Source: a virus (taxonomy: Duplodnaviria; Caudoviricetes). Taken from it: 64,000 nt of DNA. Made by a program: the position numbers and the translations under genes. Below are positions 3,038 to 64,000 of the stretch, piece by piece. The DNA is taken from positions 1 to 64,000 of the IMG/VR virus record IMGVR_UViG_3300037455_000100; one strand, 5' to 3'. The notes beneath the pieces were generated by a model. It saw only the letters and a list, made by a program, of their open reading frames with translations. It made no database searches and had not been told where the DNA came from. The number at the start of each line of letters is the position of its first letter. Position 1 is the stretch's first letter.

Positions 3038-3073
3038 CACAAAATATTTTAGATGTAATCAAAATAATATTAA

Positions 3074-7961: not shown

Positions 7962-7992
7962 TTGATTTATTTTTTAGTTTAACAAATCTTTG

Positions 7993-8081
7993 CGGCAAGG
8001 GTAGGATTCTAACCTACATTCCTATCTTTACTACTCTCTAGAACTTCATAAAGATTCGTGACTTATTTAGTCTACCATGCC
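7993..8081 (-). pseudogene. Degenerate tRNA-like element
   Basis: Acceptor GGCATGG/CCTTGCC, D stem GACT/AGTC, T arm GTAGG-TTAGAAT-CCTAC; anticodon arm expanded. Confidence 0.5.
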
Positions 8082-8085
8082 TTTG

Positions 8086-8159
8086 CTCTTCGGCTAGGAC
8101 TTGAACCTAGGATTTTCTGATTAACAGTCAGACGTTCTAACCAACTGAACTACCGAAGA
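8086..8159 (-). tRNA. tRNA-Asn (GTT)
   Basis: TCTTCGG/CCGAAGA acceptor, TCTGA-CTGTTAA-TCAGA anticodon arm, CTAGG-TTCAAGT-CCTAG T arm. Confidence 0.92.
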
Positions 8160-14838: not shown

Positions 14839-14922
14839 GCTCCCGTGACGTAATAGGCAGCCGTGTCAGACTTAAAATCTGATGTCCAAAAGGACGTATG
14901 GGTTCAAATCCCATCGGGAGTA
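14839..14922 (+). tRNA. tRNA-Leu (TAA)
   Basis: GCTCCCG/CGGGAGT acceptor, TCAGA-CTTAAAA-TCTGA anticodon arm, long variable arm, ATGGG-TTCAAAT-CCCAT T arm. Confidence 0.92.
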
Positions 14923-15229
14923 CTAACTGTAAATAGCAAAATCTGAGATTAGACTAAGATTGGCAGTCCGACTAATAGTGTTAAATATCCCCTGATGCAC
15001 GGGGTAGGTAAGCCACTATTTACAGTTTAATTTAAGACTGAAGCCGATACCGGGATATATAATAGTAAGAGGTAATATCAGTAAGAGAGACTCCACCTCT
15101 GAACTTATATATAAAGTAAGGATAAAACCGCCTGAAGCCAGTCTTATACTATAAGAAGTGAGTACCCTTTATTTTCATGGATAATTAATTGATTAGGTTT
15201 GTCATAATATTATTTACTCACTTCTTTAT

Positions 15230-15312
15230 GGGGGTATAGCACGTAATGGAAGCGTATCAGTCTTCTAAACTGATGTCGTAAGACCTTGTGGGTTCGAGTC
15301 CCACTACCCTCT
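15230..15312 (+). tRNA. tRNA with TCT anticodon (Arg) and atypical long variable arm
   Basis: GGGGGTA/TACCCTC acceptor, TCAGT-CTTCTAA-ACTGA anticodon arm, GTC-GTAA-GAC extra arm, GTGGG-TTCGAGT-CCCAC T arm. Confidence 0.8.
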
Positions 15313-15358
15313 CAAATTATCTAAGGTTTAATTTAATGTTTCTTTTAATTTCCATATC

Positions 15359-15390
15359 TCACTATCGTTGTGAAACGGTAGTGATTTTTT
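15359..15390 (+). terminator. Intrinsic terminator
   Basis: TCACTATCG-TTGTGAAA-CGGTAGTGA then TTTTTT. Confidence 0.7.
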
Positions 15391-15424
15391 ATTTAAACTA
15401 ATAATAAATTAACACACAAATATT

Positions 15425-15667
15425 ATGTATACACATCAAACACTAAAACAATGTGGACAGAATACTTATAATAGTATAAACTGTACAAACAAAATTCGTA
15501 AAGTCTCACAAAATAAATTTGAGAATGTTACGTTAGTAGGCAAACATGCTTTTAATTATACAGTACTCATACAAAATAAGAGTACTAAAACATTGAAAGC
15601 TGTATCATTCCCTACAAGAAAAGAAGCAATTACTTTCTTTTTACTAACTATTAAGAAATACAACTAA
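15425..15667 (+). CDS. Hypothetical protein
   Basis: 80 aa with ACACACAAA leader. Confidence 0.55.
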   Translation: MYTHQTLKQCGQNTYNSINCTNKIRKVSQNKFENVTLVGKHAFNYTVLIQNKSTKTLKAVSFPTRKEAITFFLLTIKKYN

Positions 15668-15891
15668 TAAGATAATTATGGAAAATATTAAATCCAGCGC
15701 TGAACTAATGGATGAAATATCATTCATCAGTACAAAAGAATACTTGTAGAGAGAGGTCTTTGTTATTTTGTACAAAAAAAAATAATACTCTACAAGTAAT
15801 TATAAGGCTTCTTTTAAAAACTATAGGTTTCATGGTAGTTAGTTATATGTTTTCTGTTTGTGGGTAATAGTACCTTAAAGAAGCCTTAAAT

Positions 15892-15963
15892 TGTCCTATA
15901 GTATAATGGTTATTACATCAGATTTTGGTTCTGAGAATCTAGGTTCGATTCCTAGTAGGACAA
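15892..15963 (+). tRNA. tRNA-Gln (TTG)
   Basis: TGTCCTA/TAGGACA acceptor, TCAGA-TTTTGGT-TCTGA anticodon arm, CTAGG-TTCGATT-CCTAG T arm. Confidence 0.92.
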
Positions 15964-15979
15964 CTAAATATATAATATT

Positions 15980-23676: not shown

Positions 23677-24660
23677 TTAATTTGTTATATGTTGTTTGTT
23701 CTTTGGTCTTGGGGTTACCTTAAACTCTACTCCCTTCTTTAGCTTATACTGCTCTGGATTATATATCAAGTAGTAGCCGTCCTTGAAAATGTGGCGATGG
23801 ATTCTTAATGATAAGGCTTTCTTGTTAAGGTTGAGAGCTTCCGATGCTTCTGAGGTATTGCTGAATGACCTGAGGATATTGCTATCCTGGTCAACCATAT
23901 CTATCTCAATCTGCATCAGTTTCTTTCTGTCTATACCAGCAAGGCTAAGATAGTTACAGATAGTAGAAGGGTGCATTTCTACAACCTTTGCTATTTCTGT
24001 AACAGGTAATCCTTGTTTGGCAAGACTGATGACCTTATCCATATCCTTATTAAGACTCCTGCTACCCGTACCTCCAGCTTTGGCTTTATTGAGAATAGTC
24101 CAGCCTTGGGATTTGTAGAGTTCTATATAGTAAGCTTCAAGTTCTTTGGCTTCTTTGACAGGAATGTAATCTGTCAGCTTCTTATGTATCGGTGTAAGAC
24201 CAGTAGTAGCCATGTACTTATAGACTGTTGAACGTCTTGAAGTTATATGGCAATTATGCCTTAACCGATAGTTGTAGGTTAATCCTATATAAGCACTGTG
24301 GTCTGGGAATTCATAGACATATATCATTCTATGTTTTCTATTGCCTAAAGGTTCCATATGAGCATAAGCCTCTTTTTGTATTCCCCTTCTTCTGATGCGG
24401 CTATACAAGACAGAGTTCTTTTCACTTAGTTCCTTTATAGTCTTATACTGTTTAACCTGTTCAAGAAGCTCAGCATTACTGACATTACAACCAGCATATC
24501 TGCTTGGATAGAGTTCATCAAGACAACCCATATTCCTCATTGCTCTATAATAAGAAGAGTGATAATCTGCTACATCATTCCGTAGCATATCAGTGTGTTG
24601 CTTTTTGAACTCTAAGCAGTCCTCATAAGTTATGTCTTTCCATGTCTTCATAAGCTTCAA
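23677..24660 (-). CDS. GIY-YIG family homing-endonuclease-like protein with C-terminal HTH/NUMOD modules
   Basis: MIYVYEF...AYIGLT...R...E...LN motif order; HTH VTEIAKVVEMHPSTI. Confidence 0.75.
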   Translation of the reverse strand: MKLMKTWKDITYEDCLEFKKQHTDMLRNDVADYHSSYYRAMRNMGCLDELYPSRYAGCNVSNAELLEQVKQYKTIKELSEKNSVLYSRIRRRGIQKEAYAHMEPLGNRKHRMIYVYEFPDHSAYIGLTYNYRLRHNCHITSRRSTVYKYMATTGLTPIHKKLTDYIPVKEAKELEAYYIELYKSQGWTILNKAKAGGTGSRSLNKDMDKVISLAKQGLPVTEIAKVVEMHPSTICNYLSLAGIDRKKLMQIEIDMVDQDSNILRSFSNTSEASEALNLNKKALSLRIHRHIFKDGYYLIYNPEQYKLKKGVEFKVTPRPKNKQHITN

Positions 24661-24703
24661 GATAAAGAGGATGTGCCTTTATAGACACACCCTCATTGAT
24701 TAT

Positions 24704-27088
24704 TTACTCAGCTTTGGTAATACTGAAACTGTAGGAATTATCTGAGCCAGACTTAGTAGCCGTAGCTGCTGATGCAATACCACTACTTACCAATGCAGTG
24801 CAAAGGTTGTTCACGGTAGTTCCCATTTCATCAGGACTTACCCAACCTTCAAGAATATTCATCTGAGTAAGACTTCTGAGAAGCTCTGTTGCATTACCCG
24901 GCATTACTGCACTAGTAGTAGCTGCGCAGCTTACAGGACTACTTGCAAATTTCTTCGTCTGGTCGTCCCAGTTCTGCGCCTGCATCGTGACGCCGGTGTT
25001 GCCGACCTGGTAGGTGGGGTTGAAGGCGGTGGAGAGGGGGACGAGGACGGGCTCGCCGACGGTGAGGTCGGGGCGGGTGTCGTACATTAAGTCGGAATAA
25101 GATTTCTTGAGTGCCGTTTCGGTCTCACACCAAAGATAGACGTTCTCCAAAAATGCTGCATGACCGTTATTCAGGTCAGAACCTGACTTGCTTCTGTCTC
25201 TGAATCGCAAAGCCTCGCCATTTGAGGCTGCGACGATTGCGCCAGTGTAGATTAAATGCACGTAGTCATACGGAGCCTTTGCATACTTGGCACATCCAAT
25301 GTTGGAGGTTTTCTTTGTATTGCCATTCGGCATGACGTGAGGATTGCTTCCTGCCGTAGTAATGAACAATCCAGCGACAGAGCTATGCACGTACCAACTG
25401 AGGTCGCCAAGATTTACCTTGCCACAAATAACATTTGCTGCGTCATTAGCAACATATATCACGTCGTGAGCTGTTCCTGCGCCCTTCATTTCTCCATCAC
25501 TCCAAACCTTCACATACTCCCCTTCCCCGTTCAGCTTACCATACACCCTGCCGACCTCCAGGCTCAGCAAACTCCTTGAGTACCCGCCAACCTCGTCGCT
25601 CGGCGTGCTGTCGTCCCACACCTGCCAGCAGGCGCAGTCCGCCAGGCTACCGCTCGACAGCGTGACTTGCATCACCACCGCATCGCCTTCGGGCACGCTC
25701 ACCTCGTAAACGCTTCCAGCCGTCACTTCGACCACCGCCACGGGCTGACCGCCCAGAGCCGTAGCCGCCACGCCGCTGATCGCCGCACCGTTCCGTGCCA
25801 CCACGCGATACAGGCCGTCGGCATTCTCCCATTCGTAGTACGGGCAAAGGGCCACGCCAGAGGTCGGGTCGAGCAAGTTCACGCCCGGCATCGAGCGCAG
25901 CTGCAGCACCCGCACACCGATAAGCTCACCGCCATTGTAGTCGTAGTCGTCGCTCAGACCCACCTTGCTGCCCAGCCAGCCGTACATTGCCGCCAGCGTC
26001 GAAGGTGCCGAGGTGGGGAGGGAGAAAACGAACGGGTTGCTCGATGTGCCTGCCCCGCTGCTATCAATCCCGAACGCCAGCGCCATATCAATCACGTTTC
26101 TCTTGGCCGACGCGCTGAAGTTCGCCCCGCCCACGAAGAACGCCGACGAGTACGAGTAGCTACCCTCCTCGCCGCTGCGCTGTACCGCCTCGGCATGCGT
26201 CGCCCTCACCTTATAATGAAGACCCGTATAGTTGCTCTGGTTCTCCTCCGTCACCGCAGGCACGAATCCCTCGCCCGTCACGGCCACCCTGCCCGTCAGG
26301 TCCGCCCCCGTCAGGAACTCCCTCAGGAACAGGCTCGGCATCGGCGTAGTACCAGCCGCGTTGGAGAATCTCTCCACCACCTTGCCGAAGAGGAACTCCA
26401 GCTGCGCCGCCTCCGTCGCCACGCTCGCGCCCCCCGCCATCTTGTCGTACAACTGGCTCCACGCCACGCCATCACCCTCGATGGTCTGCATCCGTGCCGT
26501 GCCGTTGCCAATCTCATTATTTGGAGCGGTAATGTCAAGGGTGGTCTGTTCAGTAACCACGTCTTCGGAGAGGATATTGACAGCATTTCCAGCCGTTAAA
26601 TCCTCATAGAAGCCGTTCTTCATAGCGAAATTGTTGTCAACATACCCTTTGATAACCTTGTTCTGTACAGCATTAGTAGAACTATCAGACATAGCTGTAT
26701 CAGCAGTACCAGTAGCTGTAACAGTAGTCCATACAGTTTCACCCTGTTCATTTAAAGACAATACCTGACCATTAGTACCAGATATAGTAGGATTGGTAAC
26801 TAAGTTACTTAACTTCTTACCAGAAACTATTGCTTGACCATTACTTCCTTTTGTAAGAATTTCACCTTCTGTTAAAGGATGTTCAGTATCTACCAAGTTC
26901 ATTTTACTATCAAGACTATTATCAATTTCAGTCTTGGTATAATAGTTACTCATATCAGCACCAGATTTAACCCACTTACCTTTAATATATACTTTAAGTG
27001 TAGGTGGATTGGTACTAGTGTCCATCCAATTTACATTTACATTAGGAGGAGCTACCTCACTAAATACTGTTTTATCAGTAATTTTCAT
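24704..27088 (-). CDS. Tail fibre / receptor-binding-like protein
   Basis: YYTKTEID and DTAMSDSSTNAVQNKVIK fibre-type segments; Gly/Ala/Ser/Thr-rich; start chosen at MKITDK, below a TATTTTTG promoter (27133-27126). Confidence 0.65.
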   Translation of the reverse strand: MKITDKTVFSEVAPPNVNVNWMDTSTNPPTLKVYIKGKWVKSGADMSNYYTKTEIDNSLDSKMNLVDTEHPLTEGEILTKGSNGQAIVSGKKLSNLVTNPTISGTNGQVLSLNEQGETVWTTVTATGTADTAMSDSSTNAVQNKVIKGYVDNNFAMKNGFYEDLTAGNAVNILSEDVVTEQTTLDITAPNNEIGNGTARMQTIEGDGVAWSQLYDKMAGGASVATEAAQLEFLFGKVVERFSNAAGTTPMPSLFLREFLTGADLTGRVAVTGEGFVPAVTEENQSNYTGLHYKVRATHAEAVQRSGEEGSYSYSSAFFVGGANFSASAKRNVIDMALAFGIDSSGAGTSSNPFVFSLPTSAPSTLAAMYGWLGSKVGLSDDYDYNGGELIGVRVLQLRSMPGVNLLDPTSGVALCPYYEWENADGLYRVVARNGAAISGVAATALGGQPVAVVEVTAGSVYEVSVPEGDAVVMQVTLSSGSLADCACWQVWDDSTPSDEVGGYSRSLLSLEVGRVYGKLNGEGEYVKVWSDGEMKGAGTAHDVIYVANDAANVICGKVNLGDLSWYVHSSVAGLFITTAGSNPHVMPNGNTKKTSNIGCAKYAKAPYDYVHLIYTGAIVAASNGEALRFRDRSKSGSDLNNGHAAFLENVYLWCETETALKKSYSDLMYDTRPDLTVGEPVLVPLSTAFNPTYQVGNTGVTMQAQNWDDQTKKFASSPVSCAATTSAVMPGNATELLRSLTQMNILEGWVSPDEMGTTVNNLCTALVSSGIASAATATKSGSDNSYSFSITKAE

Positions 27089-27230
27089 AACAAAATATTG
27101 TTTATATAGGTTAATAAAATTGGTGCAAAAATACACATTTTTATTCAATTAGCTCCTACTTTATAACATTAATTGTTTAACTCATACATAAATAACACAG
27201 TATTAAATTTATACAAAAACTAAAAATTAA

Positions 27231-49776: not shown

Positions 49777-50883
49777 AAACATAAATAGTAAGTTTTGATT
49801 ATTATTATATTTAACTATTTGTCTATTTTAAAAATTAATTGTATATTTGCAAAATAAAATTTACAAGCTATGATTATTAAAGTAGATGATTTAGAGTTAC
49901 TTAAGAAGAAAGGTATATATAGTATTACTAACATATTAAATAATAAAAAATATATTGGAAGTACTGCTAAATCCTTTCAATCAAGACTTACTCAGCATTT
50001 AAGTAAACTAAGATTACAAAAGCATCATTGTGTACATTTACAATATGCTTGGACTAAATACGGTGAAGATAATTTTATATTCACTATTGAAGAGGTTTTA
50101 GATAATGTAGATAATTTATTAGATAAGGAAGCTGAATATATAGCTAAGTATGATAGTTATCATTCTGGCTATAATGCTAATCCAAACCCTAATACATCCC
50201 CTATGTTTAATGTAAATTCTAAAGAGAAAAGTTCTTTAACTCATAAACAACAATGGGAAAATCTACGAAATTCTATGACCGAAGAAGAATATCAGTCTTT
50301 TGTTAAAGATAGGTATGCTTTTCGATATGGAATTTCTCCGGCAAATAAGGGTAAAAAGGCTTCAGAAGAAATTAAAGTTAAAATGAGAAAGCCTAAGGTA
50401 AACGGAGTCACATCAGCCATGAAAGCTGTACATATTAAAAATGCAGAACTTATCAAAGATAAATCTGATTATATTTTAGTTTACGATATAAATAAAAATT
50501 GGATTAATACTTTTAGGTGTAATTCGGACTTAGTATGGTATAGTAAATCGGAGTTTAATGACCTACCAATGATTCTTAAAAAGAATAGTAGTAGGTTCTT
50601 AGACCCCTCCAAAATTGCTAACCATATTAAAGACGGAAGACCCTATAAAGGATTATATTTCGTGCGAGCTCCCAAGAGTAGGAAACTCTCTTGTGCAAAT
50701 GGGATGAATTCATGGAAAGCTGAAAAGCCAATCATGAGCCAAGCAGGAAGTACACTTTCTGAAGGTGCAGAGACTACTGGAGAGGTTTAGCCCTCTTAAT
50801 AACCAGCTAGAGCGTCCCACACCTAAACATATTTATTATGCATGGTGATGATATAGTCCAACGGGTGAATGCTGCACCCTATG
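49777..50883 (+). mobile_element. Group I intron 2 in polA
   Basis: T|TC junction restores Phe in AKGIEFAINYG (motif B); core GAATTCATGGAA, CATGAGCC, GCAGAGACTA, ATATAGTCC; terminal G. Confidence 0.88.
49870..50790 (+). CDS. Intron-encoded GIY-YIG homing endonuclease
   Basis: GIYSITN...KYIGS...R...GYN; own TTTG-N20-TATATTTG promoter (49818-49849). Confidence 0.88.
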   Translation: MIIKVDDLELLKKKGIYSITNILNNKKYIGSTAKSFQSRLTQHLSKLRLQKHHCVHLQYAWTKYGEDNFIFTIEEVLDNVDNLLDKEAEYIAKYDSYHSGYNANPNPNTSPMFNVNSKEKSSLTHKQQWENLRNSMTEEEYQSFVKDRYAFRYGISPANKGKKASEEIKVKMRKPKVNGVTSAMKAVHIKNAELIKDKSDYILVYDINKNWINTFRCNSDLVWYSKSEFNDLPMILKKNSSRFLDPSKIANHIKDGRPYKGLYFVRAPKSRKLSCANGMNSWKAEKPIMSQAGSTLSEGAETTGEV

Positions 50884-51521
50884 TCGCTATTAATTATGGA
50901 GGAGATGCTAATACTATCTCTAAAAACAAGGGTATTCCTATAGAAGAGGCTAATACTATCTATAATAGTTATATGGAAGGCTTTAAAGGTCTTAAGAGAT
51001 ATCAAGACTTTAGAAGAAAAGATTGGTTTGATAAAGGATATATTCTATTAAGTCCTATTACTGGGCACAAAGCTTATATATATGACTGGAAAAAACTTAA
51101 AGAGGATAGAGCCAAAATGTCTGAGGAAGGATTTTGGGATGGATATAAAGATTTAAAAATGTTCTATCCAGAGCATTATAAAGTGCAAATGGTAAGAAAT
51201 TTCTTTAAAAGAAAATCTGCTTCAGAGAAACAGTCAATTAATTACCCGATACAAGCAGCTGGCTCATTTTGTTTAAGATTATCCCTTGTATACTTCTTTA
51301 ATTATATTAGACAAAATAATTTATTAGGAAAGGTAAAAATATGTGTAACTCCTTATGATGAAGTTAACTGTGAAGCTCCTGAGAGTATAGCTGATACAGT
51401 AGCAGATGTATTATATAAATGTATGGTAAAAGCAGGCTCTTTCTTTTGTGATAAATGTAAATTAGATGCTGATATAAGCAAGCTAGATGACGGAACGTTA
51501 CCAACATATTGGATTCATTAA
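50884..51521 (+). CDS. polA: DNA polymerase family A, exon 3
   Basis: AINYGG, NYPIQ, PYDE motif C; spliced CDS is 2031 nt = 676 aa. Confidence 0.88.
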
Positions 51522-54846: not shown

Positions 54847-57800
54847 ATGATACACTGTATAAGTAAGAATAGTATTTATAATTCTGAAGATTTAGAACAG
54901 TTTAATAAGATTCAAGAGTATTTTAATTGGTCTGATAGTGTTGCTGAAGCTAAAATAGGAACTTGGATGTCTATACACAATACTGCTGAATTTCCTACTA
55001 TAGACCAAATGAAATATTATATAGAAGATAGTGCTAGAAAACAATCTGAGAAGAATGGTTATACTACTGAAATGCAACAAATAAAAGACCAAGCCGTTAC
55101 TGATGGTACTTTTATGAAAGCGCCTAATGGCAAACCTACTAATCTTAATGAAAGACAATGGTTACAAGTTAGAACTAAAGCTTTTAAAGAATGGTTTGGT
55201 GATTGGGAAAGTTTAGCAGAAAGTCATTTAAATACTTTAGAAATACTCAATGAAGACGGTAGTATTAATTTTGATAAATTAGAAGAACTATCTGATGAAT
55301 ATTTCAAAAATGCTGATGAAAGTTTATTCAATAAAGGTCGTAAAACATTAAGAGAAAGACAAGAACATCACAAAGGAGAAAATAACACTTTAGAACATAT
55401 ACAAAATGTAGTAAAATCAGCACAACAATCTAATATTTCTGATAGTCTTAAACAGCATGTCGTTATAGCAGCTGCATTACATGATTTAGCAAAACCATTT
55501 CATGCTGGAAATAAACATGGTTTTCAAAGTGAAGGATTACTTAATAAGATATTTAAAGGTAAAGTAAGTGGTCTTGCTAGATTTGCTATAGCACATCACA
55601 TGATGACTATAGAAGAAGGACAAGAATTTACTAAAGAAGACGCTGAAAGAATTGTAAATGATGCTATAAATAGAAATTTAGATATTAATGAAGCAATAGA
55701 CGTATTAATAGCATTGCATATAGCTGATATTACAAGAGGAAGAAATCTTGAAGATATTGATGAGTATTCTAATAAATCTATACGTGAGTTTATTAATAAT
55801 GAAGTTGAAAATAAAAGACAATTACTTAAAGAAGCTGCAAATACTAAAGAAGTTAATAGCGTTTCTAAAGTAGTTGATAAAAATGGCGAGCCTTTGGTGG
55901 TTTATCATGGAAGTAATAAAAAGTTTTCTGAATTTGCAAAAGGAATTGCTATTTACACTACTAGCATAGAAATGGCAAATTCTTATTACTATAGTGAAAT
56001 AAACGCTGAAGAAGATTCTGAATTATTTTATTATAATGGTAAAGAAGAAGATTATGGTCTTGCTAGAGAAGGAGATTATGAACGTGCTTTGTTATTCTTA
56101 AATCAAGATAAAGAATTTCTACAACACTTATACTTTACAAATCCTAATGAAGTACCTAAAATACAAGATGACTTTGAAAATTTTATAGGACAAAACTATC
56201 CTGAATATGCTATTGTTGAAACAGAGGATAAAGAACATTTAGGAACTGTTTATGGTGTGCTTTATAACAAAATACCAAAAGATAGATACAAAGAAATAGC
56301 TAACGCTTTTGCTGAAAGTCAACATCCTTCTAATCCTGTTGATTATTATTATAATAAAATTACTGGAAAAAATTATGATTTATTTAATAATATAAAAAAC
56401 CCATTAATAGTTGATGCTGAAGATAAATGGTGGGATGAAATCTATTTTAACGGAGAACTACTACAGTCTACTAGAGATATAGAAGAGTATGCTAGAAAAC
56501 ATGGTTATGACGGCTTTATAGTATATAATGTAAAAGATTATGGTGGATATTCATTAGAAGAAAATTATGTTGGTTCTCAAAACATTTATGTTGCATTTAA
56601 TCCTAATCAAACCAAATCTGCTACTGATAATATAGGTACTTTTAGTAAAGAAGATGATAATATTTATAAAAGTGAAGATTTTTCTAAAAAATTAAAATCT
56701 TATACAGAGCGTTGGACGACTGAATTACAAGAATTAATTGATATAAATCCAGATAGAGCAAATGCTGTCGTAGCGGATTTTAATGAAAAACATTTTAATG
56801 TTAATTTTGGAGTATACAATGGTAAGGTAACTGATAAAAATTTAAAAATAGATAATATTTCTATTGATAATCCAGAAGCTATTTTACAACATTTTAAAAA
56901 TAAAGCCAAAAGTAAAGAGATTGAAAATATTATTTTTAATACTGTTTATGAAAGTCTTATAGGTGATACGATTAGTAAATCATCTAATGCTCATTTAAAA
57001 CATATATTTAATAGTATACGTAATAAGTTTGTTAAAAATGGTATAGAATTTTCCTTTGAATATAACACCTCTATAGAAAGTTCAATGGCTTTTCAGTGGA
57101 GAGAAGGTAAACCTGTAATATTTATAAATCCGAATAATTTAAGAGCAGAATTAACACTTTCCGATAATCCTTTAGAAAGATATACAGAACTTATAATTCA
57201 CGAATTAACTCACGGATTAATGTCTAGTTTGTTGGAAATTAACGAAGAAGATATAAAGAATTTATCACCTGAAGCACAAAAATGTTATAATGATATCTAC
57301 GATTTATATAACTCTATAAAAGATAAATTACCAGAGAGTTATGGAAAAACAACTATCCACGAATTTATATCTGAGGCTCTTTCTAATAAAGAGTTTCAAC
57401 TAGAATTAGCTAAAATTAAATATGATAATACTAAATCTTTATTAGATAGATTTATAGAAAAATTCGTTAAAATTGTTTCTGAGTATTTAGGTATTGATAT
57501 AAAAGATTCAGCATTAGAAAAAGTATTACAAATAACTTCTAATTTTACACATACTGAAGATAGTTTAGAATTAATCAATTTTTTATCTGATAACAACTCC
57601 ATTTATAATTCACAAACTATTATAAATCCTATATTTAAAGAAGAGTCTTCTAGTGGATATAGAGAGAGAACTATTAAAAATGCTAAAGCTGATGCTACAA
57701 TAGCTTTTGCTGTAGATTTTAACTCTGCTGGTGAAAGACTTACTAAAAAAAGTGTTTTACAACAAAATAAAAAATACATACCTATAGATACTAACAATCC

Positions 57801-60800
57801 TGAAATATCTGATGAATTAGTAGAATCTACTGTTAATCAATTAAATGCAGTAAACGCAAAATCTTTAAATATTGCTGGTAATGGTATTTATACTTTAAAA
57901 GGTAAATATACACAAGAACAAGTTGATGAGTACGTCTATAATCTATTAAATAGAGTAATAAATCATCCCAATCTTAAAACTAAAATTGAAACTATTAGAA
58001 GCGGTGGTCAAACTGGTTACGATGAAGCTGGTATTAAAGCCGCTATGAGATTAGGTATCACAAGTGGCATATTAGCTCCCAAAGGTTGGAAATTTAGAAA
58101 TGTTGAAGGAAAAGATATTTCTGATGAAAAAGCTTTTAAAGATAGATTTAATCTTACAACACAACAATCTTCTACTATAAAAACTACAGAACAACCTATT
58201 AATACCCATCAAGAATTTACTCCAGTCAACACTACTCTTGAACAACAAATGAAACAAGAGTGGACTCCTCAAATTGTACAATTTAGGACGTTACGTATTG
58301 TGTCAGAGTTTAAGAAATGTGTTAACAATCTTGAAAGAAAATTAGACGCTTCTGAACAATTAGCTACACAATCTGCTACGAGACAATATTTAATTACTAC
58401 TAAATACGGTACTAGTAAGATATTAGGTAAAGTTAAAGATAGTATTACTAAAACATACGCTAATTTAGACTGGGTTACTGATTTTGTGCATGATTTATAT
58501 GAAGAAGAGGATTGGAATACTAAAGAAGTGATAGATAAAATAAATCATATTTATGAACAAGGTCAATTAATGCTTAAATATTTTGAGCCTTTATGTTTTG
58601 AAGCTAGTATGTATATTAAAAACATGGAGGGTGTATCATTACTTACCAATGATGGAGAATTAGTTGAGATTGATGATGAAACTACTATTGATGAAGAAGA
58701 TTTCACTAAGCATGAAGAAGGCTGGTTTTACAATGCTCACGAACAATCTGTAGAAAGTCAGATTAGTGCTGAAACTAAAAGTGTACTTCAAAATCTTTAT
58801 GAAACAGATGAGTATGGAGAACCAGTACAATATGATGATTTAGAGCAGTCTCTTACACTGGATTATAGGATGGTGCTTGGTACTGTTCTACAACTTGTAG
58901 GTAAATGTACTTCTAATAGTCAAATGATTCCTACTATTAAGAATGAAGTTGCTAAACATGGCTGGATGCAACAGATTCTTGATATATTAATGGGTAAAGA
59001 CACTAATTTCTCACAGATTTACAAAGGACTGTCTAAAGAAGATATTGAGCTTAAAGCGTTTAATTTACGTGCATTATTCTGGAAGGATATGCATAAAATC
59101 TTTGTAAATATTGCACAGCAAACTATTACAGATAAAGGAGATATTGAAACAGATATAGTTAATCATAAAGAAGGTGCTGATGCTTTAATGGCACAATTTG
59201 AAGATGATTGTTATGATTGTAAACCTATATTTGATGAAAATCATAAACATTATAAGACTGTATATAAAGCGGATGGTTCTTTTGACCGTTCTATATACAA
59301 TTCTTTACATGAAGAGGTCAGTAAATCTAATCTTTATAAATCAATAATAGATGGTACTTGTACATCTGAAGAAATAGACTTGATAGACAAAGTATTAAAA
59401 TCTTTTGGTGTAAATATTACTAAAAATACTATTGAACAATTAATTAAAGGTGGTGAAGAAACTAAAAACTCTCGTGATAATTTAAAAAATGTAATATTCG
59501 GTTTTTATGCTAAAAATATAGACAACAATCAGCCTTTACAATCAGTAATTAAAGAGAATGTTAATATATTTGACGCTTTTAGAGATAATTATAAAAAGAT
59601 TGCCGAAATATTTGCTGATAATACTGATGGCTATGATGAATCTTCTGCTAGAGTTGAAGTGGACAATGAATCAAAATCTTTGTTTAGTAGAATATTTCCT
59701 AATCCTATACATACAATATTTAACAAACTTAAAAATAATGATAATTTAAACGAAGAAGAGTATCAGAAACGTATAGATGATGAATATGGTCATAACTGGT
59801 GGTTTGCTCCTATACGTAAAAATGATAGAGGAATCTTTGGTAAAGGATTATTAAATGATATACTTACTAATTTAGGTGTTAGGAATGGTTTAAGAATTAA
59901 AACTCTTAAAGCTTCACAAGGAATATCATACGGTCATGAGATTGATGCTCAAGCTGAAGAGACTAGACTTAATGAATTTGAAGCAAGTAATCGTAACGTG
60001 TTAGGAGTGGCTTTTAGAGATTTTTCAGTACCAACATTCTCAGATACTGGTGAAAGTTATTATATAAGTATGCCTTATTTTGATATTCATAATGATAATC
60101 AACGTAAGGAACTTATAGATAGACTTTGCGAAGTATTTAAACAAGAAATGCGTCGTATTAATGTAGTTGAGAAGAGGGCTAAAGCTGGTATTAAACCTAT
60201 TGCTAGTTTTGATATTGAATTTAAGTTTAATCCTAAAACTGGTAAAAACGAAAGAGTTGAAAGTACTACTGACGGTTCTAATTTCCACTTCTTTAAAAAT
60301 CTTAATAAAGATAAAAAGAATATTATTGAACAGTATAATAGTTTAAGTATAGATATTAACGCTCAGGATAAATATATAAGGGATTTAGTCAGACAGTCTT
60401 TAAATGAGGAATTTATTAAATACTTAAATCACTATAATAGTTGTCAAGTTAATCAATTACCTAAAGGTAAACACACTGAAAAAGATAGGAAGCAGTTAAT
60501 ATCTTTTATTAATAAAACTGTTGATAATAGAAAGAATATACCTCTGACCGATGACCAAAAGAGAGTTATTGATAATATCCTTCATATACTGCAAAACGAT
60601 ACTATTACAGAAGAAATCTTTAACGATTTAAAAGAAACTCTTAAAACTACTCTCACTGAAGGATTAGTTCAAAATGAATTTACTGCTAATATTATAAGAA
60701 CTATAGATTCGTTTGCTCTAAATACTGAAAACCTTGAAAAACTTAAAGATTATTTCTATAATAGTTTCTACGCTACTACACAAATTATAGAATTAACCAT

Positions 60801-63800
60801 GAGAGATCCAGCTTTCTTAGGCACTAATGATAAGTTTCAGAAGCGTTTTAAAATGTTCTATAGTCCTGTACAAACTTGTTATACTACAGAATACGATTTA
60901 CAACGTTATAATGAAACAGGCGAGATTGTTGAGTTAGATTCTAATAGAAAAAATGCTTTATCAAAAGATACTGAATACTCTTTAATATTAGTTGATGATG
61001 AGATTACTCAAGCAATGTCGTTTGATAATATTAAATCTGCTATTGAAAAAAGATTTCAAGACGGTTATCTTAACAGGACTCAAGCAGATGAGATATTAAA
61101 GAATATGAAAGATATTAATGTAGCTGATGCACAATGTTACAGAACCTTACCTTCATGGCAGAAATGTCTTAATATGATTGGTAAAGGTTATAACAAGAAG
61201 ATGCAACAGTCTATTAATAGATTAATGGATGGAACTTGGTCTTATGAAGATTATCATAATGTCTGGGAGATATTTAAACCTTTTGTAGCTTCCTATAGTA
61301 ATATTGAAAGCGGTATTACCGAGGAGCTGGGTGAGCAATATTCTAATATAGAAGTTCCTATAATGCACAAGAATGCTGAGTTCTTATTATTAGCTATGTA
61401 CACTCAATTAAGCGGTGTTATGAAAACTAATGAGAAGCTCAAAGCACTTAACGAGTTTATGGTTAAACATGGTATCGATAAGGTTCAGTTTGAATCTGCT
61501 GTAAAGGTAGGTAGTCAAGCACCTATTAATATTAATGTATGTAAGACTGCTGATGAAGTAACTTCTACACTTGAGATTGCTACAGGACTAAAAGATAATA
61601 TGCAAGCTAATGAAGGAGACCAACAAGTAGTACATTCTATACCATTCTCTGATTGGGGTATTTCTACCTCAATGCCTGAGCATTTACTTGACCACGAAGA
61701 ATCTTCTATGGGTACTCAGCTTATGAAGATTATTATGGAAGGTCTTTCGGAGAATCCTAATAAGAAAGTTAGAGTTGGTAATACTACTAAGACTTATAAA
61801 CAATGGTTAGAACTTTATCAAGCTATTCATGTACAGAATCTTAAAGATGCTTTTAAAGAAGTAGGTAAGATATTTAATTCTAATGAAGAACTTGCTGAAT
61901 ATCTTAAAAAGCAAATTCTCAAACAAAATAAATATAGCCATGATTTAATTAAACATCTTAAAGTTGTAAATGGTAATTTTGTATATCCCATTATCGACCC
62001 TCTGCTGAGAAGTCAATTTGATTCTTTATGCTCTTCTTTAGTTAGAAATACTGTAACTAAAAGAATGATGCGTATGGGAGCATTACCTCAAGTAGCTAGT
62101 TATGGATTTGAAGAAGAACTTCAACTTAGGTTTACTGATAGAAATGGTAAACTAATTCTCACTGAGAAAGAGTTTAATGAGGAAGGCTCTAATATAGAAG
62201 GTATTGAAACTTGGGAAGCTTATAAAGAGTACGCTAAGGATAACTGCACAAATCTTGCATATATGGAAGTATATTTACCTCCATTCGATACTACATTGAT
62301 GCGTAAGATTAATGATGCTTGTATATATAAAGAAGATGTATATGATAAGAACGGTAAACGTATTCATAGAAGTGGGGAATTTAATGATAAACTTTTCAAT
62401 AAAATCTTTGCTAAAGAGTTACTTGAAGGATTGGCAAACCGTGTACCTACTGAAACTAAACATAGTATAATTCCTATATATGTAAAAGGATTTTTACCAG
62501 CTCAAAATAGCTCGTGTGTTATTATACCAGCTGAATGGATTGCTATATCAGATTCTGATAATGATGGGGACAAGTTATATTGCTATTTCTATCATTCTAA
62601 AGCTGACTGGAATATTAACCAAATGAAGAGAGATTATGCAAGCCATTATGGTTGGAAATATCTAACAAAATCTCAAAGAGAGGAAAATATTAAAAATCTT
62701 TCAAACTTTAAAAATAAAAACTATAAAAAATCTGAAGAACTTGATATATTATGGAACAGTGTTCCAAGATTAGCTGACCCTAATGACCCTGTTTGGCAAT
62801 TAATAACAAAAGAAGTTATTGACGATGATGATGATGCTAATGTTATAGGAAGCTCTACACTAAATACAAAAGTTACTAAGTTTAAAATAGAGGATGATGA
62901 AGAGTTCAGAAGAGTTAAAGAGTTTTACAGACAAGCGTATTTAATGTATGAAAAGTATTGTAAAATTAAACCAGTAGAATTTAAAGAAGTTGGATTAGAG
63001 AGATTAGAAAATGAGTCTGATGAAGATTATCAACAAAGAATTGATTTAGCTAGTATAGAATCCAATAATCGTGAAGCTAGAAATAATAAGTTACTTGAAC
63101 TTATGATTTCTATATGTAGAACTGATGATAACACTGCTCAAATATTAATTCCTGGTGGTTTCCCAATTATAAAACAAGTAGCTAAAGATATGAAGGAATT
63201 ATCTGGTGTTACTGATGATGATATGAGTATTTGTAACCCTGCTGTAAGAACTATACAACAGATTAGAAATATGGCTGGTGCAAATCTTATTGGTATTTAT
63301 GCTAATCATAGAAGTTTTAGACCTCTTCTTGAGCAAGCTAAATGTACAGTATATCAAGAAAATAGACCTATTGTTAATGGTAATAAATCACTGCTTAAAG
63401 ATAAAGCTACTAAACAACCTACTTGGTCATTAAGCTCTGAGAAGAATGCTAGAGGTGAGTTTATATCTGATAATATAAGTAACTTCTCAGGTGCTTCAGT
63501 AGATAATGCTAAAGACCCGTTATTAAGCCATATAGGTCAAAATGAAGTAACTGCCCCTATAAGTATGTTCTTAATACATTGTGGATATACTATCAGAGAA
63601 GTTGCAGCATTTATGAGACAGCCAGCTATCGAGGATTGTGTAAGAGAATATTTATTGTCTGGCAGAAAAGGAACTCTGGATTCTATTATTAAAGCTAAAA
63701 TAGCATCATTACCGTCTTATGCTAATATATCTGAAGATATTACTAATCTTAGTCTAAATTTACTTGACAACCAAATTAGACGTAAAGCTAAAGGTATTTT

Positions 63801-64000
63801 ACAAACAAATGAAGATTTAGTTATTCAAAGAATAGTACTTGAGAACTTATTAAAGATACTACCAGCAAGCAGAGCTATTCAAAACTTAATTACCGTTACT
63901 AAAGCTGATACTCAAGTAGGTGCTTTAAAAGCTAGGAGTTCTGAAAATAAAACTAAGCTCCAACTATTTGAAAGAGTTGAAGATAAAGTACTTGATGATG
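54847..64000 (+). CDS. Giant virion RNA polymerase / polyvalent protein (more than 3050 aa; runs off window)
   Basis: Frame-1 ORF from ATG at 54847 after a TAATTTTG promoter; NRVPTE near 62440 and DSDNDGDKL at 62551-62577 (double-psi barrel catalytic DxDGD); N-terminal ART-like, HD, HExxH and SLOG domains. Confidence 0.88.
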   Translation, partial: MIHCISKNSIYNSEDLEQFNKIQEYFNWSDSVAEAKIGTWMSIHNTAEFPTIDQMKYYIEDSARKQSEKNGYTTEMQQIKDQAVTDGTFMKAPNGKPTNLNERQWLQVRTKAFKEWFGDWESLAESHLNTLEILNEDGSINFDKLEELSDEYFKNADESLFNKGRKTLRERQEHHKGENNTLEHIQNVVKSAQQSNISDSLKQHVVIAAALHDLAKPFHAGNKHGFQSEGLLNKIFKGKVSGLARFAIAHHMMTIEEGQEFTKEDAERIVNDAINRNLDINEAIDVLIALHIADITRGRNLEDIDEYSNKSIREFINNEVENKRQLLKEAANTKEVNSVSKVVDKNGEPLVVYHGSNKKFSEFAKGIAIYTTSIEMANSYYYSEINAEEDSELFYYNGKEEDYGLAREGDYERALLFLNQDKEFLQHLYFTNPNEVPKIQDDFENFIGQNYPEYAIVETEDKEHLGTVYGVLYNKIPKDRYKEIANAFAESQHPSNPVDYYYNKITGKNYDLFNNIKNPLIVDAEDKWWDEIYFNGELLQSTRDIEEYARKHGYDGFIVYNVKDYGGYSLEENYVGSQNIYVAFNPNQTKSATDNIGTFSKEDDNIYKSEDFSKKLKSYTERWTTELQELIDINPDRANAVVADFNEKHFNVNFGVYNGKVTDKNLKIDNISIDNPEAILQHFKNKAKSKEIENIIFNTVYESLIGDTISKSSNAHLKHIFNSIRNKFVKNGIEFSFEYNTSIESSMAFQWREGKPVIFINPNNLRAELTLSDNPLERYTELIIHELTHGLMSSLLEINEEDIKNLSPEAQKCYNDIYDLYNSIKDKLPESYGKTTIHEFISEALSNKEFQLELAKIKYDNTKSLLDRFIEKFVKIVSEYLGIDIKDSALEKVLQITSNFTHTEDSLELINFLSDNNSIYNSQTIINPIFKEESSSGYRERTIKNAKADATIAFAVDFNSAGERLTKKSVLQQNKKYIPIDTNNPEISDELVESTVNQLNAVNAKSLNIAGNGIYTLKGKYTQEQVDEYVYNLLNRVINHPNLKTKIETIRSGGQTGYDEAGIKAAMRLGITSGILAPKGWKFRNVEGKDISDEKAFKDRFNLTTQQSSTIKTTEQPINTHQEFTPVNTTLEQQMKQEWTPQIVQFRTLRIVSEFKKCVNNLERKLDASEQLATQSATRQYLITTKYGTSKILGKVKDSITKTYANLDWVTDFVHDLYEEEDWNTKEVIDKINHIYEQGQLMLKYFEPLCFEASMYIKNMEGVSLLTNDGELVEIDDETTIDEEDFTKHEEGWFYNAHEQSVESQISAETKSVLQNLYETDEYGEPVQYDDLEQSLTLDYRMVLGTVLQLVGKCTSNSQMIPTIKNEVAKHGWMQQILDILMGKDTNFSQIYKGLSKEDIELKAFNLRALFWKDMHKIFVNIAQQTITDKGDIETDIVNHKEGADALMAQFEDDCYDCKPIFDENHKHYKTVYKADGSFDRSIYNSLHEEVSKSNLYKSIIDGTCTSEEIDLIDKVLKSFGVNITKNTIEQLIKGGEETKNSRDNLKNVIFGFYAKNIDNNQPLQSVIKENVNIFDAFRDNYKKIAEIFADNTDGYDESSARVEVDNESKSLFSRIFPNPIHTIFNKLKNNDNLNEEEYQKRIDDEYGHNWWFAPIRKNDRGIFGKGLLNDILTNLGVRNGLRIKTLKASQGISYGHEIDAQAEETRLNEFEASNRNVLGVAFRDFSVPTFSDTGESYYISMPYFDIHNDNQRKELIDRLCEVFKQEMRRINVVEKRAKAGIKPIASFDIEFKFNPKTGKNERVESTTDGSNFHFFKNLNKDKKNIIEQYNSLSIDINAQDKYIRDLVRQSLNEEFIKYLNHYNSCQVNQLPKGKHTEKDRKQLISFINKTVDNRKNIPLTDDQKRVIDNILHILQNDTITEEIFNDLKETLKTTLTEGLVQNEFTANIIRTIDSFALNTENLEKLKDYFYNSFYATTQIIELTMRDPAFLGTNDKFQKRFKMFYSPVQTCYTTEYDLQRYNETGEIVELDSNRKNALSKDTEYSLILVDDEITQAMSFDNIKSAIEKRFQDGYLNRTQADEILKNMKDINVADAQCYRTLPSWQKCLNMIGKGYNKKMQQSINRLMDGTWSYEDYHNVWEIFKPFVASYSNIESGITEELGEQYSNIEVPIMHKNAEFLLLAMYTQLSGVMKTNEKLKALNEFMVKHGIDKVQFESAVKVGSQAPININVCKTADEVTSTLEIATGLKDNMQANEGDQQVVHSIPFSDWGISTSMPEHLLDHEESSMGTQLMKIIMEGLSENPNKKVRVGNTTKTYKQWLELYQAIHVQNLKDAFKEVGKIFNSNEELAEYLKKQILKQNKYSHDLIKHLKVVNGNFVYPIIDPLLRSQFDSLCSSLVRNTVTKRMMRMGALPQVASYGFEEELQLRFTDRNGKLILTEKEFNEEGSNIEGIETWEAYKEYAKDNCTNLAYMEVYLPPFDTTLMRKINDACIYKEDVYDKNGKRIHRSGEFNDKLFNKIFAKELLEGLANRVPTETKHSIIPIYVKGFLPAQNSSCVIIPAEWIAISDSDNDGDKLYCYFYHSKADWNINQMKRDYASHYGWKYLTKSQREENIKNLSNFKNKNYKKSEELDILWNSVPRLADPNDPVWQLITKEVIDDDDDANVIGSSTLNTKVTKFKIEDDEEFRRVKEFYRQAYLMYEKYCKIKPVEFKEVGLERLENESDEDYQQRIDLASIESNNREARNNKLLELMISICRTDDNTAQILIPGGFPIIKQVAKDMKELSGVTDDDMSICNPAVRTIQQIRNMAGANLIGIYANHRSFRPLLEQAKCTVYQENRPIVNGNKSLLKDKATKQPTWSLSSEKNARGEFISDNISNFSGASVDNAKDPLLSHIGQNEVTAPISMFLIHCGYTIREVAAFMRQPAIEDCVREYLLSGRKGTLDSIIKAKIASLPSYANISEDITNLSLNLLDNQIRRKAKGILQTNEDLVIQRIVLENLLKILPASRAIQNLITVTKADTQVGALKARSSENKTKLQLFERVEDKVLDD

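Follow-up and report, generated by a model that had tools for sequence, protein, structure and literature searches.

A crassvirus virion RNA polymerase with an inserted cassette of predicted polyvalent-protein modules

Packaged polymerases and polyvalent proteins of tailed phages

It has been reported that gp66 of Cellulophaga phage phi14:2, an RNA polymerase (RNAP) of 2,180 aa, is packaged in the virion and transcribes the early genes (bioRxiv 10.1101/2020.03.07.982082), and its DxDxD motif is regarded as a signature of crAss RNAPs (PMC7886860; bioRxiv 10.1101/2020.03.07.982082). In Bacteroides phage crAss001, virion mass spectrometry has identified gp47, gp49 and gp50 as capsid cargo, the ejection of which was modelled via partial unfolding (PMC10172136). 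Ejection from N to C terminus has been proposed for gp45 of this phage only and not for its polymerase.

The theme of a polyvalent virion RNAP is already published for N4-like phages, in which a single polypeptide combines a packaged and ejected RNAP with a zincin-like MPTase and, in certain members, with ART and other effectors, the described fusions comprising MPTase, ART, lysozyme and PBECR domains (Iyer 2017, PMC5512222). N4 uses a single-subunit polymerase of the T7 type, which is unrelated to the two-barrel enzyme of crAss-like phages. In phages and conjugative elements, polyvalent proteins (PMC5512222) string together disparate enzyme modules behind an APNG...WFGDW motif; most of them carry no polymerase. 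Phage T4 Alt is a capsid-carried ART that is delivered with the DNA and modifies host proteins at the onset of infection (PMC5512222, PMC9503650); it belongs to another ART clade and is a small internal protein on its own, fused neither to a polymerase nor to other enzymes.

The protein described here resembles gp66 and the crAss001 polymerase gp50 (2,412 aa) in its polymerase body, its Cys-bearing N-terminal leader and its C-terminal Cys. Unlike these two proteins, both of which are without an enzymatic cassette, it has about 1,050 extra residues, headed by the polyvalent-protein motif.

The reading frame and its polymerase body

The window analysed is a stretch of 64,000 nucleotides from a genome of 103,304 bp (DTR, 30% G+C), in which the crassvirus muzzle, capsid, cargo 1 and cargo 2 Pfam families and a portal gene are encoded; these families support its assignment to the crassviruses (gut-type crAss-like phages). 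The polA gene of this genome shows an intron-like interruption, with a GIY-YIG ORF just upstream.

The giant ORF (Table 1) is a single plus-strand frame running uninterrupted from an ATG over 3,051 codons to the window end. The initial annotation had placed all of its motifs in one frame, and both the frame and the motifs were found as described: MKAPNGKP at aa 90 (nt 55114), SKVVDKNGEPLVVYHG at aa 339 (nt 55861), HELTH at aa 785 (nt 57199), HEFISEA at aa 840, SGGQTGYDEAG within the cpYpsA match and DNDGD at aa 2571 (nt 62557). The extent it gave was truncated by the window end, the real end lying at genome position 65319, which makes a product of 3,490 aa. A stop codon between the N-terminal domains and the polymerase was looked for in frame and none was found, and an open frame of 10.5 kb at 30% G+C is far beyond chance expectation.

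Table 1. Features of the giant ORF, in window coordinates
Feature	Residues (aa)	Position (nt)	Strand	Basis
Giant ORF		54847..64000 (window part; full locus L002:847-11319)	+	open-frame reading, whole genome
Conserved N-terminal leader, MIHC... to ...EFPTIDQMKYYIE	1-61	54847..55029	+	BLASTP, junction sequences
Module-head motif, APNGKPTNL...WLQVRTKAFKEWFGDW	74-126	55066..55224	+	phrog_30335, invariant columns
HD-superfamily phosphohydrolase domain	~130-335	55234..55851	+	fold comparison, conserved residues
ART-PolyVal ADP-ribosyltransferase domain	339-612	55861..56682	+	PF18760
Lineage-specific ART insert	~385-505	55999-56361	+	present in ~1/3 of homologues
ART-to-zincin interval, ~150 residues	620-769	56704..57153	+	comparison, model
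Zincin-like module: HELTH (785-789), HEFISEALSNKEF (840-852)	~770-900	57154..57546	+	motif conservation
cpYpsA, circularly permuted YpsA-like SLOG domain	924-1104	57616..58158	+	PF12694
T/Q-rich linker, right-hand junction of slot	1105-1132	58159..58242	+	relatives' junction sequences
crAss-type two-barrel virion RNAP body	~1133-3490	58243..64000, on to 65316 past window	+	profile, tblastn
Catalytic metal-binding motif DNDGD (D2571, D2573, D2575), then K2576		62557..62571	+	relatives' alignment

The claim of a crAss-like virion RNAP was borne out for the C-terminal two thirds of the product, which are of the phi14:2-gp66/crAss001-gp50 type. A profile built from 15 relatives matched 6VR4 chain A (gp66) in the PDB with an E-value of 8.5e-79 over chain residues 173-2192, that is, over essentially the whole chain, while tblastn against gp50, annotated as 'putative RNA polymerase', gave 28.7% identity (2e-80), and the D-x-D-x-D-K motif showed no variation across 27 aligned relatives. 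Gene order agrees with gp50/gp49/gp47 of crAss001, gp49-like and gp47-like giants being neighbours and cargo 1/2 and muzzle being present as in that phage. Judged by sequence, the gene product is an orthologue of crAss001 gp50 and phi14:2 gp66.

It could be argued that the fusion is an artefact of a chimeric contig, a missed intron or a frameshift, the polymerase and a polyvalent protein being separate products, since introns are numerous in crassvirus genomes, in which the RNAP gene is at times fragmented (PMC7886860), and polA has an intron-like interruption in this very genome. Against this, the frame runs for 10.5 kb without interruption, the cassette is flanked by a conserved leader upstream and a conserved junction downstream, and independent assemblies from other samples show this arrangement of leader, cassette and polymerase within a single ORF, namely P0007, P0008, P0009, P0012 and the IMG/VR loci L012, L021, L034, L036, L060, L063 and L081, all of which makes an artefact extremely improbable.

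Enzyme modules of the cassette

The cassette comprises, in order, the module-head motif, an HD domain, ART-PolyVal, the interval at aa 620-769, the zincin-like module and cpYpsA, with four or five enzyme modules in all. The ART and SLOG modules had been listed in the initial annotation, which overlooked the HD domain; profile searches returned matches for ART-PolyVal, cpYpsA and the RNAP and none above threshold for the zincin.

The module-head motif is a small helical unit (model pLDDT 84-91) found ahead of effector modules in polyvalent proteins, in others of which it occurs in up to five copies per protein. Between this WFGDW motif and the ART domain, the HD domain scored below threshold in Pfam (E 0.018), and it retains the invariant residues H184, H212-D213, H219, H224 and H251 in an H..HD..H pattern, so that its metal ligands are conserved. 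Its AF2 model (pLDDT 83.8) aligned with the HD domain of 3wfs_D in VIA-align (Z 11.7, rmsd 3.8, 167 residues aligned), and all 50 of the 50 rows listed were of the HD superfamily. The domain was not found at the corresponding place in P0008 and P0009.

The ART-like domain is confirmed by PF18760 (E 1.9e-16; 61.6 bits against a curated cut-off of 31.2), the match falling in two stretches, and it carries an unusual insert of 120 aa. The ART of N4-like RNAP polyvalent proteins (PMC5512222) is likewise a member of the Pfam family ART-PolyVal. The positions most conserved in the family are retained, including H354, D555-G556 and N587-Q588-x-K-S-A, while comparison with the family gave no certain placement of the catalytic Y and acidic residue. 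The interval that follows is helical with short strands, is poorly modelled and has a counterpart solely in P0009.

The YpsA-like SLOG claim likewise held, through PF12694 (E 5.2e-14; 52.6 bits against a curated cut-off of 26.2) and a fold match of the model (pLDDT >90) to 3imk (Foldseek prob 1.0; VIA Z 8.8, rmsd 2.6). The domain also matched phrog_10774 (1.7e-30), and R941, N945, D949, NxAGNG and GGQTGxDE are nearly invariant. For viral YpsA-like SLOG domains, a role in breaking down immune signals of the cADPR type has been proposed (PMC9503650).

For the predicted metallopeptidase, the HExxH and [HQ]EF[IVL]xE..SN..F motifs are kept in seven homologues (P0009, P0008, P0040, L088, L089, L090, L081), and the module matched phrog_37402 (3.9e-5), but Pfam returned nothing above threshold (M35 0.04, M78 0.048). 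Zincin identity thus holds at the motif level only, and a protease role is weak because, in addition to the missing profile match, the model is of moderate confidence (pLDDT 55-79). In N4, too, the vRNAP that contains the MPTase is packaged without processing (PMC5512222). A metal-dependent hydrolase, 3dl1_A, aligned with Z 5.0, and the top, though weak, fold match was 8vb2_A (Z 8.9), an internal ejectosome protein of PhiM1. That match could suggest that the modules act in particle assembly or envelope penetration rather than as cytoplasmic effectors, the zincin-like part helping in maturation or encapsidation and the remainder being ballast or ejectosome parts. N4 encapsidation does require the region with the MPTase (PMC5512222), and the zincin gp65 of phi14:2 has been suggested either to switch on the RNAP or to digest peptidoglycan (bioRxiv 10.1101/2020.03.07.982082). 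We consider such a role improbable, as Z 8.9 is within the tool's stated background range for helical domains, no plausible capsid or periplasmic role exists for ART, SLOG and HD, which use cytoplasmic NAD+ or nucleotide phosphates, and presence/absence polymorphism speaks against structural need.

The accessory slot and the possible role of its contents

Comparison of N-terminal architectures across crassvirus RNAPs refined the claim of an N-terminal fusion: the modules are fused in frame, but as an insertion between a leader of about 60 aa and the polymerase body. In BLASTP, the first ~58-63 aa of P0003, P0005, P0007, P0009-P0011 and P0015 are 40-60% identical to the leader, which is kept even in relatives with no cassette or with another one, and an M-x(1-7)-C start is nearly universal among crassvirus RNAPs. 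At the right-hand junction, P0012 and P0002 rejoin this protein at ...TTEQPI[ND]THQE..PVN.... Among relatives with bodies 53-57% identical, both leader (aa 1-~60) and body (aa ~1110 onwards) are conserved, and the stretch between them is of varied content and anything from ~60 to ~1,900 aa long.

This junction is a slot, the content of which differs between near-identical polymerases. Among crAss001-type RNAPs that are 98% identical, L060/L012 differ from L008 solely by a cpYpsA insert after the leader and L024 has a different insert at the same place; the difference between the 95% identical RNAPs of L021/L016 and L007 is likewise confined to the slot. A census of 38 crassvirus RNAPs with long N termini found RecD/PIF1-like helicase (6), Kinase-PolyVal (5), DUF7831, cpYpsA and ART-PolyVal (4 each) and NADAR (3). 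The N4 MPTase, by contrast, is nearly constant and C-terminal to its polymerase.

With 57-78% identity to modules of other large proteins, which number in the thousands (6,302 hits), the cassette modules resemble these more closely than the polymerase body resembles its nearest kin, evidence that points to modules mobile between proteins. Polyvalent-protein modules, including those of the giant crassvirus cargo-type proteins P0075 and P0171, are 40-78% identical to modules here; in these two the same head-HD-ART block lies near the C terminus of a different giant protein, the gene of which adjoins a crAss_CARGO2 gene.

The same comparisons bear on whether the cassette acts in cis, in the service of the polymerase or of phage nucleic acids, with no attack on the host, for example by auto-ADP-ribosylation that keeps the packaged RNAP inactive, by HD/ART chemistry on early-transcript ends or phage DNA, or by a SLOG domain that senses a nucleotide and switches the enzyme on after entry. 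The nearest structures to the HD domain are RNA-end-processing HD domains of CCA/A-adding enzymes, the ART superfamily has RNA- and DNA-modifying members (PMC9503650), and gp66 is packaged self-inhibited with its activation mechanism unexplained (bioRxiv 10.1101/2020.03.07.982082). However, polymerases 95-98% identical occur with, without or with unrelated modules, which indicates that the cassette is dispensable for core polymerase function, and thousands of polymerase-free proteins carry the same modules; a role in cis is rather unlikely, if somewhat less so than one in assembly.

The reading that we favour, and hold to be likely, is that an ejected crassvirus virion RNAP carries an inserted polyvalent-module cassette that enters the host alongside it. 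The case for delivery draws on the virion proteomics of crAss001 (PMC10172136) and the concept of polyvalent proteins (PMC5512222): because the polymerase is capsid cargo, presumably leaving the particle before the DNA or together with it, the cassette would ride into the cell and could act from the first moment on targets or immune signals of the host. With NAD+ as its substrate the ART would modify macromolecules of the host, SLOG and HD may bind or break down molecules derived from nucleotides, for example signals of the ADPr/cADPR type, and the zincin-like module may cleave modules free after entry. Relatives carry NADAR, kinase or helicase modules in place of these. Because the slot in close relatives holds other modules or none, the cassette is probably a kit for host takeover or anti-defence that changes fast and enters the cell with the polymerase.

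The polymerase and its gene neighbourhood

The source genome, of which the window represents the first 64 kb, is 103,304 bp long with direct terminal repeats, and it is that of a crassvirus, as indicated by Pfam matches to crAss_MUZ (E 9e-217), Crass_capsid (5e-103), crAss_CARG1, crAss_CARGO2 and a P22-like portal. The initial annotation had described a virion RNA polymerase (RNAP) fused in one frame to a series of effector domains. The motifs it quoted are all found where it had placed them (aa 90, 339, 785, 840 and 2571), and no stop separates the N-terminal domains from the polymerase: the frame is open from its ATG to the window end (3,051 codons) and, followed in the whole genome, continues uninterrupted to encode a protein of 3,490 aa.

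Searched against PDB sequences with hmmsearch, a profile of aa 1150-3490 made from 15 relatives retrieved 6VR4_A, the DNA-dependent RNA polymerase gp66 of phage phi14:2, at E 8.5e-79 and in two stretches (chain residues 173-1009 and 1109-2192 of 2,194) which include both barrel regions; phmmer of the whole single protein against PDB sequences gave no match, 6VR4 being found by the family profile only. It was also found by tblastn that aa 2001-3490 align with the 'putative RNA polymerase' gp50 of Bacteroides phage crAss001 (28.7% identity, 83% coverage, 2e-80). The DxDxD motif, a signature of crAss RNAPs (PMC7886860; bioRxiv 10.1101/2020.03.07.982082), is present as DNDGD, and D2571, D2573, D2575 and K2576 (D-x-D-x-D-K) are invariant in 27 relatives. 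In keeping with the initial annotation, homology, the DxDxD motif and gene location identify the body as a predicted crAss-type two-barrel virion RNAP of the phi14:2 gp66 family.

With regard to location, a 1,461-aa ORF next downstream of the giant ORF is a full-length orthologue of crAss001 gp49 (28% identity, E 1e-144), and a convergent 2,401-aa ORF shows weak similarity to crAss001 gp47, an arrangement that matches the 'transcription/cargo' block of crAss001. The genes for cargo 2, cargo 1 and muzzle adjoin these. It has been shown that crAss001 virions hold gp47, gp49 and gp50 as capsid cargo, for which a model of ejection through the tail by partial unfolding has been put forward (PMC10172136). 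In phi14:2, gp66 is a packaged enzyme that comes in with the DNA and is responsible for early-gene transcription (bioRxiv 10.1101/2020.03.07.982082). Pfam and PHROGs gave no match for the gp49-like, the gp47-like or a neighbouring 728-aa protein. HExxH is absent from the gp49-like protein of this genome, so the 'gp65-type zincin' proposed for phi14:2 is not evident here. The 728-aa protein, whose gene is flanked by those of cargo 1 and cargo 2, carries an HEFTH motif at aa 305 and may be regarded from this motif as another zincin-like candidate among the cargo genes. Two related proteins considered as gp47 orthologues were rejected: P0075 showed weak similarity to the gp47-like protein (E 3e-6, together with a common C-terminal tail) and P0171 showed none.

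Nearly every full-length crassvirus RNAP starts with M-x(1-7)-C and carries a cysteine among the last 1-10 residues, and this holds even where identity drops to 20-25%. This pattern includes crAss001 gp50 (MSKRC...ICGANTLYEL) and the protein described here, with Cys4 and Cys3487; crAss001 gp49 starts with MAKKC and gp47 ends in ...ALRCNS, and in this genome the gp49-like ORF starts with MSNSC and the gp47-like ORF ends in ...NVLNC. The terminal cysteines could act as a signal in packaging or ejection, or could hold the two ends together like a staple.

Elsewhere in the window, the 30% G+C background of the genome is broken by a patch of 49% G+C in which the GC skew is reversed. The ORFs called mechanically on its minus strand, one of 327 aa with weak GIY-YIG and HTH hits and one of 814 aa starting at TTG, have no Pfam or PHROG family above threshold, and no Rfam match falls in the patch, which may consist of foreign DNA or encode a large structured RNA. 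A GIY-YIG endonuclease ORF precedes a 227-aa fragment whose match to family-A DNA polymerase is confined to the C-terminal part of the latter, and it seems that an intron or a homing-endonuclease insertion interrupts polA. At gathering thresholds Rfam found five tRNA genes in the window and nothing else (Ile-TAT, Asn-GTT, Leu-TAA, Arg-TCT and Gln-TTG), all of which decode A/T-rich codons.

Positions of the giant ORF, of motifs within it and of other features (window numbering unless another reference is named)
Feature	Nucleotide position	Residues
Giant RNAP ORF	54847-65319 (genome)	1-3490
N-terminal cysteine	54856-54858	4
IY[NK]S, first copy	54874-54885	10
APNGx-(19)-WFGDW unit	55120-55209	
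IY[NK]S, second copy	56662-56673	606
HELTH		785-789
HEFISEA		840-846
Segment containing HEFISEA		840-852
IY[NK]S, third copy	57601-57612	919
IY[NK]S, fourth copy	59293-59304	1483
DNDGD		2571-2575
C-terminal cysteine	genome 65305-65307 (L002:11305-11307), beyond the window	3487
728-aa ORF	genome 78253-80436 (L003:4253-6436), minus strand, beyond the window	
tRNA genes	7992-8159 and 14839-15964	
49% G+C patch	23677-27148	
GIY-YIG endonuclease ORF	49870-50790	
227-aa polymerase fragment	50838-51521	
Apparent polA split	49870-51521	
Giants in crass-like contigs	L092:1001-9505; L093:1001-11245	

A variable segment between leader and polymerase body

When the protein was compared by BLASTP with 32 relatives, a conserved leader of about 60 residues (40-60% identical) was found to end in ...EFPTI[ED][EQ]M..YE, and the polymerase body to be conserved from about aa 1110, while the segment between them ranges from about 60 to about 1,900 residues and differs even among RNAPs that are 53-57% identical. 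For example, the related protein P0012 has aa 2-610 in common with this protein and then carries a NADAR domain, P0009 is without the HD domain, P0015 has the zincin-C/cpYpsA part only, the P0007 segment reaches about 1,900 residues, and those of P0003, P0005, P0006, P0010 and P0011 are unrelated in sequence to the one described here. The N-terminal extension was also estimated for 80 crassvirus RNAP loci of IMG/VR, and spans about 80 to about 2,000 residues. The clearest evidence for such a slot comes from the crAss001 lineage itself, where the RNAPs of loci L060 and L012 (2,608 aa) are 98% identical over 2,340 residues to that of the crAss001-type locus L008 (2,412 aa) and have the leader in common with it, a cpYpsA domain being inserted right after this leader; in locus L024 another insert occupies this position, and loci L021 and L016 differ from L007 in the slot according to the same pattern.

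These observations bear on three other explanations of the cassette. It could act in cis on the polymerase or its transcripts, or it could serve assembly or penetration, and the presence/absence polymorphism of the slot modules argues against both; that the long fusion is an artefact is countered by the same layout in independent assemblies. A cassette that enters the host with the polymerase is the reading that we consider likely.

A census with Pfam of the N-terminal parts of 38 crassvirus RNAPs with a long N-terminus yielded RecD/PIF1-like helicase (6), Kinase-PolyVal (5), DUF7831 (4), cpYpsA (4), ART-PolyVal (4), NADAR (3) and DUF1848 (1). The initial annotation had called for a comparison of N-terminal architectures across crassvirus RNAPs; in this comparison the modules prove to be inserted after the leader and do not form a plain N-terminal fusion. 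A HMMER scan with aa 1-1150 returned 6,302 hits, with module identities of 57-78%, which exceed the identity of the polymerase body to its nearest kin, and these modules are mobile in a wider pool. In this regard, the APNGx-(19)-WFGDW unit occurs once here and as 2-5 repeats in other polyvalent proteins, spaced 160-800 residues apart and each ahead of a new module, and behaves as a generic 'module head'. Two crass-like contigs (L092 and L093) encode giants of 2,834 and 3,414 aa which adjoin crAss_CARGO2 genes and carry the head-HD-ART block near their C-terminus, indicating that effector modules are joined to different cargo proteins in different crassviruses. With HD, ART, zincin-like, SLOG and RNAP parts joined in one 3,490-aa crassvirus ORF, the protein would qualify as a polyvalent protein in the sense of Iyer et al. 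2017, in which a single polypeptide of a phage or conjugative element joins at least two biochemically disparate domains and travels with the DNA into the recipient cell; the presence of the orthologue in crAss001 virions (PMC10172136) makes such delivery plausible here.

A short motif, IY[NK]S, is present four times in the protein, a number reached in none of 2,000 shuffles, and three of the copies lie at module borders, namely after the N-terminal cysteine, at the end of ART and before cpYpsA. P0009 has the equivalent two copies, and P0012 diverges right after ...DNIY at aa 607. The motif may serve as a linker or for processing, or be the trace of recombination.

Domains of the cassette

The ART-like and SLOG/YpsA-like domains that had been read from motifs are confirmed by Pfam profiles above their gathering scores. 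ART-PolyVal (PF18760; aa 339-612) scores 61.6 bits against a gathering score of 31.2, and 49.5 bits when the whole protein is searched; the most conserved positions of the family are kept, among them the invariant H354, D555-G556 and N587-Q588-K590-S591-A592. The domain is split by an insert of about 120 aa that is seen in about a third of homologues, and its catalytic Tyr and acidic residue are only ambiguously assignable, family membership being assigned by profile. The cpYpsA domain (PF12694; aa 924-1104) scores 52.6 bits against 26.2, and its glycine-rich motifs NIAGNG and SGGQTGYDEAG are intact, in columns at least 90% conserved in 33-39 homologues. In an AlphaFold2 model of aa 620-1110, the cpYpsA part has a pLDDT above 90 and resembles 3imk (Foldseek probability 1.0; VIA Z 8.8, rmsd 2.6, 110 aligned), deposited as a 'putative molybdenum carrier protein', which we take to be a member of PF12694, the family formerly named MoCo_carrier. 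Profile, nucleotide-binding motifs and modelled fold all point to a Rossmann-like SLOG domain of the cpYpsA family. The generic Rossmann/SRP-GTPase hits that Foldseek gave for the 491-residue model are put down to the joint folding of its two domains.

An HD domain that the initial annotation had missed (aa 130-335, approximately) separates the APNG...WFGDW motif from ART. Its metal-ligand pattern (H184, H212-D213, H219, H224 and H251) is invariant in 8 homologues, while the gathering score of Pfam HD (PF01966) is not reached (15.7 bits vs 22, E 0.018) and a profile of 6 homologues of the region, searched against PDB sequences, found no HD chain and only chance SPOP hits. The AF2 model (pLDDT 83.8) aligns with the HD domain of the CCA/A-adding enzyme 3wfs_D at a VIA-align Z of 11.7 (rmsd 3.8, 167 aligned), a value below the caution line of about 13 for helical folds, with weak Foldseek E-values (0.1-0.9); all 50 listed VIA-align matches are HD-superfamily proteins. 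From the ligand pattern and the all-helical modelled fold, and with a profile score below threshold, the domain is predicted to be an HD phosphohydrolase. It represents an insertion, because ART directly follows the WFGDW motif in P0008 and P0009, which are missing the HD domain.

The zincin-like module (about aa 770-900) is the weakest of the module calls. The initial annotation had recognized a zincin from HELTH and HEFISEA, the latter within HEFISEALSNKEF, and the motif itself stands, HExxH...[HQ]EF[IVL]xE..SN..F being kept in seven diverse homologues (P0009, P0008, P0040, L088, L089, L090 and L081), but no curated peptidase profile matches above its cut-off (Aspzincin_M35 E 0.04, Peptidase_M78 E 0.048) and no MPTase model matches. 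P0008 was missing from a phmmer search with aa 620-930, yet it was aligned by BLASTP and carries LHEVMH and AEFVAD motifs in a MAFFT alignment. The region, modelled jointly with another domain, has a pLDDT of 55-79, and its best fold match, 8vb2_A, an internal ejectosome protein of phage PhiM1, has a Z of 8.9 that lies inside the background range for helical domains; the match to 3dl1_A, a putative metal-dependent hydrolase, has a Z of 5.0. The PhiM1 ejectosome paper (PMC11440229) does not mention a peptidase-like domain, and the 8vb2_A match therefore provides no functional lead. Among shorter proteins, a homologue search with aa 620-930 gave a single match, P0185, and in the ESM Atlas aa 621-930 fall in unnamed viral clusters, one of which has LPD23 on 18% of its members, which is uninformative. 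With regard to the suggestion that the effectors might be released by the protein's own protease, it has been reported that the N4 virion RNAP bearing MPTase is packaged unprocessed (PMC5512222).

Possible function of the cassette and its implications

By analogy with the crAss001 virion cargo (PMC10172136), the cassette would be packaged and ejected along with the RNAP, and would then refold in the cytoplasm and act before any phage gene is expressed. Its content has an NAD+/nucleotide theme, comprising ART, a YpsA-like SLOG domain and an HD hydrolase, with NADAR in a close relative, and it has been proposed that viral YpsA-like SLOG domains degrade cADPR-type immune signals (PMC9503650). Such content would fit modification of host proteins or nucleic acids together with interference with nucleotide-based defence signalling. 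We put forward, tentatively and as a joint reading that falls somewhat short of being probable, that the leader/body junction of crassvirus RNAPs, in which the leader bears the conserved cysteine, is a dedicated 'payload slot' prone to recombination, with a counterpart in the exchangeable tips of polymorphic toxins, and that the most abundant phages of the gut use it to swap whole enzymes (ART, SLOG, HD, NADAR, kinase and helicase) over short evolutionary time; that these are threaded into the host ahead of polymerase and DNA, so that NAD+/ADPr-based and other defences are disarmed before expression of any phage gene; and that the cysteines conserved at the ends of the three giant cargo proteins are part of a packaging/ejection signal which any payload must respect.

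Polyvalent proteins, and virion RNAPs fused to MPTase, ART and other effectors, were described in 2017 for N4-like phages, although the N4-like polymerase is of the T7 type and unrelated to the two-barrel crAss polymerase (PMC5512222). In the literature searched, which takes in the main crass papers but neither Yutin et al. 2018 (Nat Microbiol) nor the final version of Drobysheva et al., neither ART-PolyVal, cpYpsA, HD, Kinase-PolyVal or NADAR on the two-barrel crAss RNAP nor a defined slot is described. What is new here is the leader/slot/body anatomy, the near-isogenic pairs set apart by their slot alone, the slot census, the HD domain and the conserved terminal cysteines.

Among the phages of the human gut crassviruses are dominant, and a slot of the ejected polymerase that is filled differently in otherwise near-identical phages gives a direct handle on the host defences they meet, specific ones being pointed to by the NAD+/ADP-ribose theme seen here and by the NADAR, kinase and helicase domains of relatives. 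ART-PolyVal, cpYpsA, the HD clade and the zincin-like clade are abundant yet uncharacterised enzyme families, and the slot represents a natural scaffold for the study of large folded enzymes co-ejected through a podovirus-like tail. The slot may also help to explain the positive selection on crAssphage RNAP genes reported in a mother-child cohort study, as cited in a review (PMC10136315).
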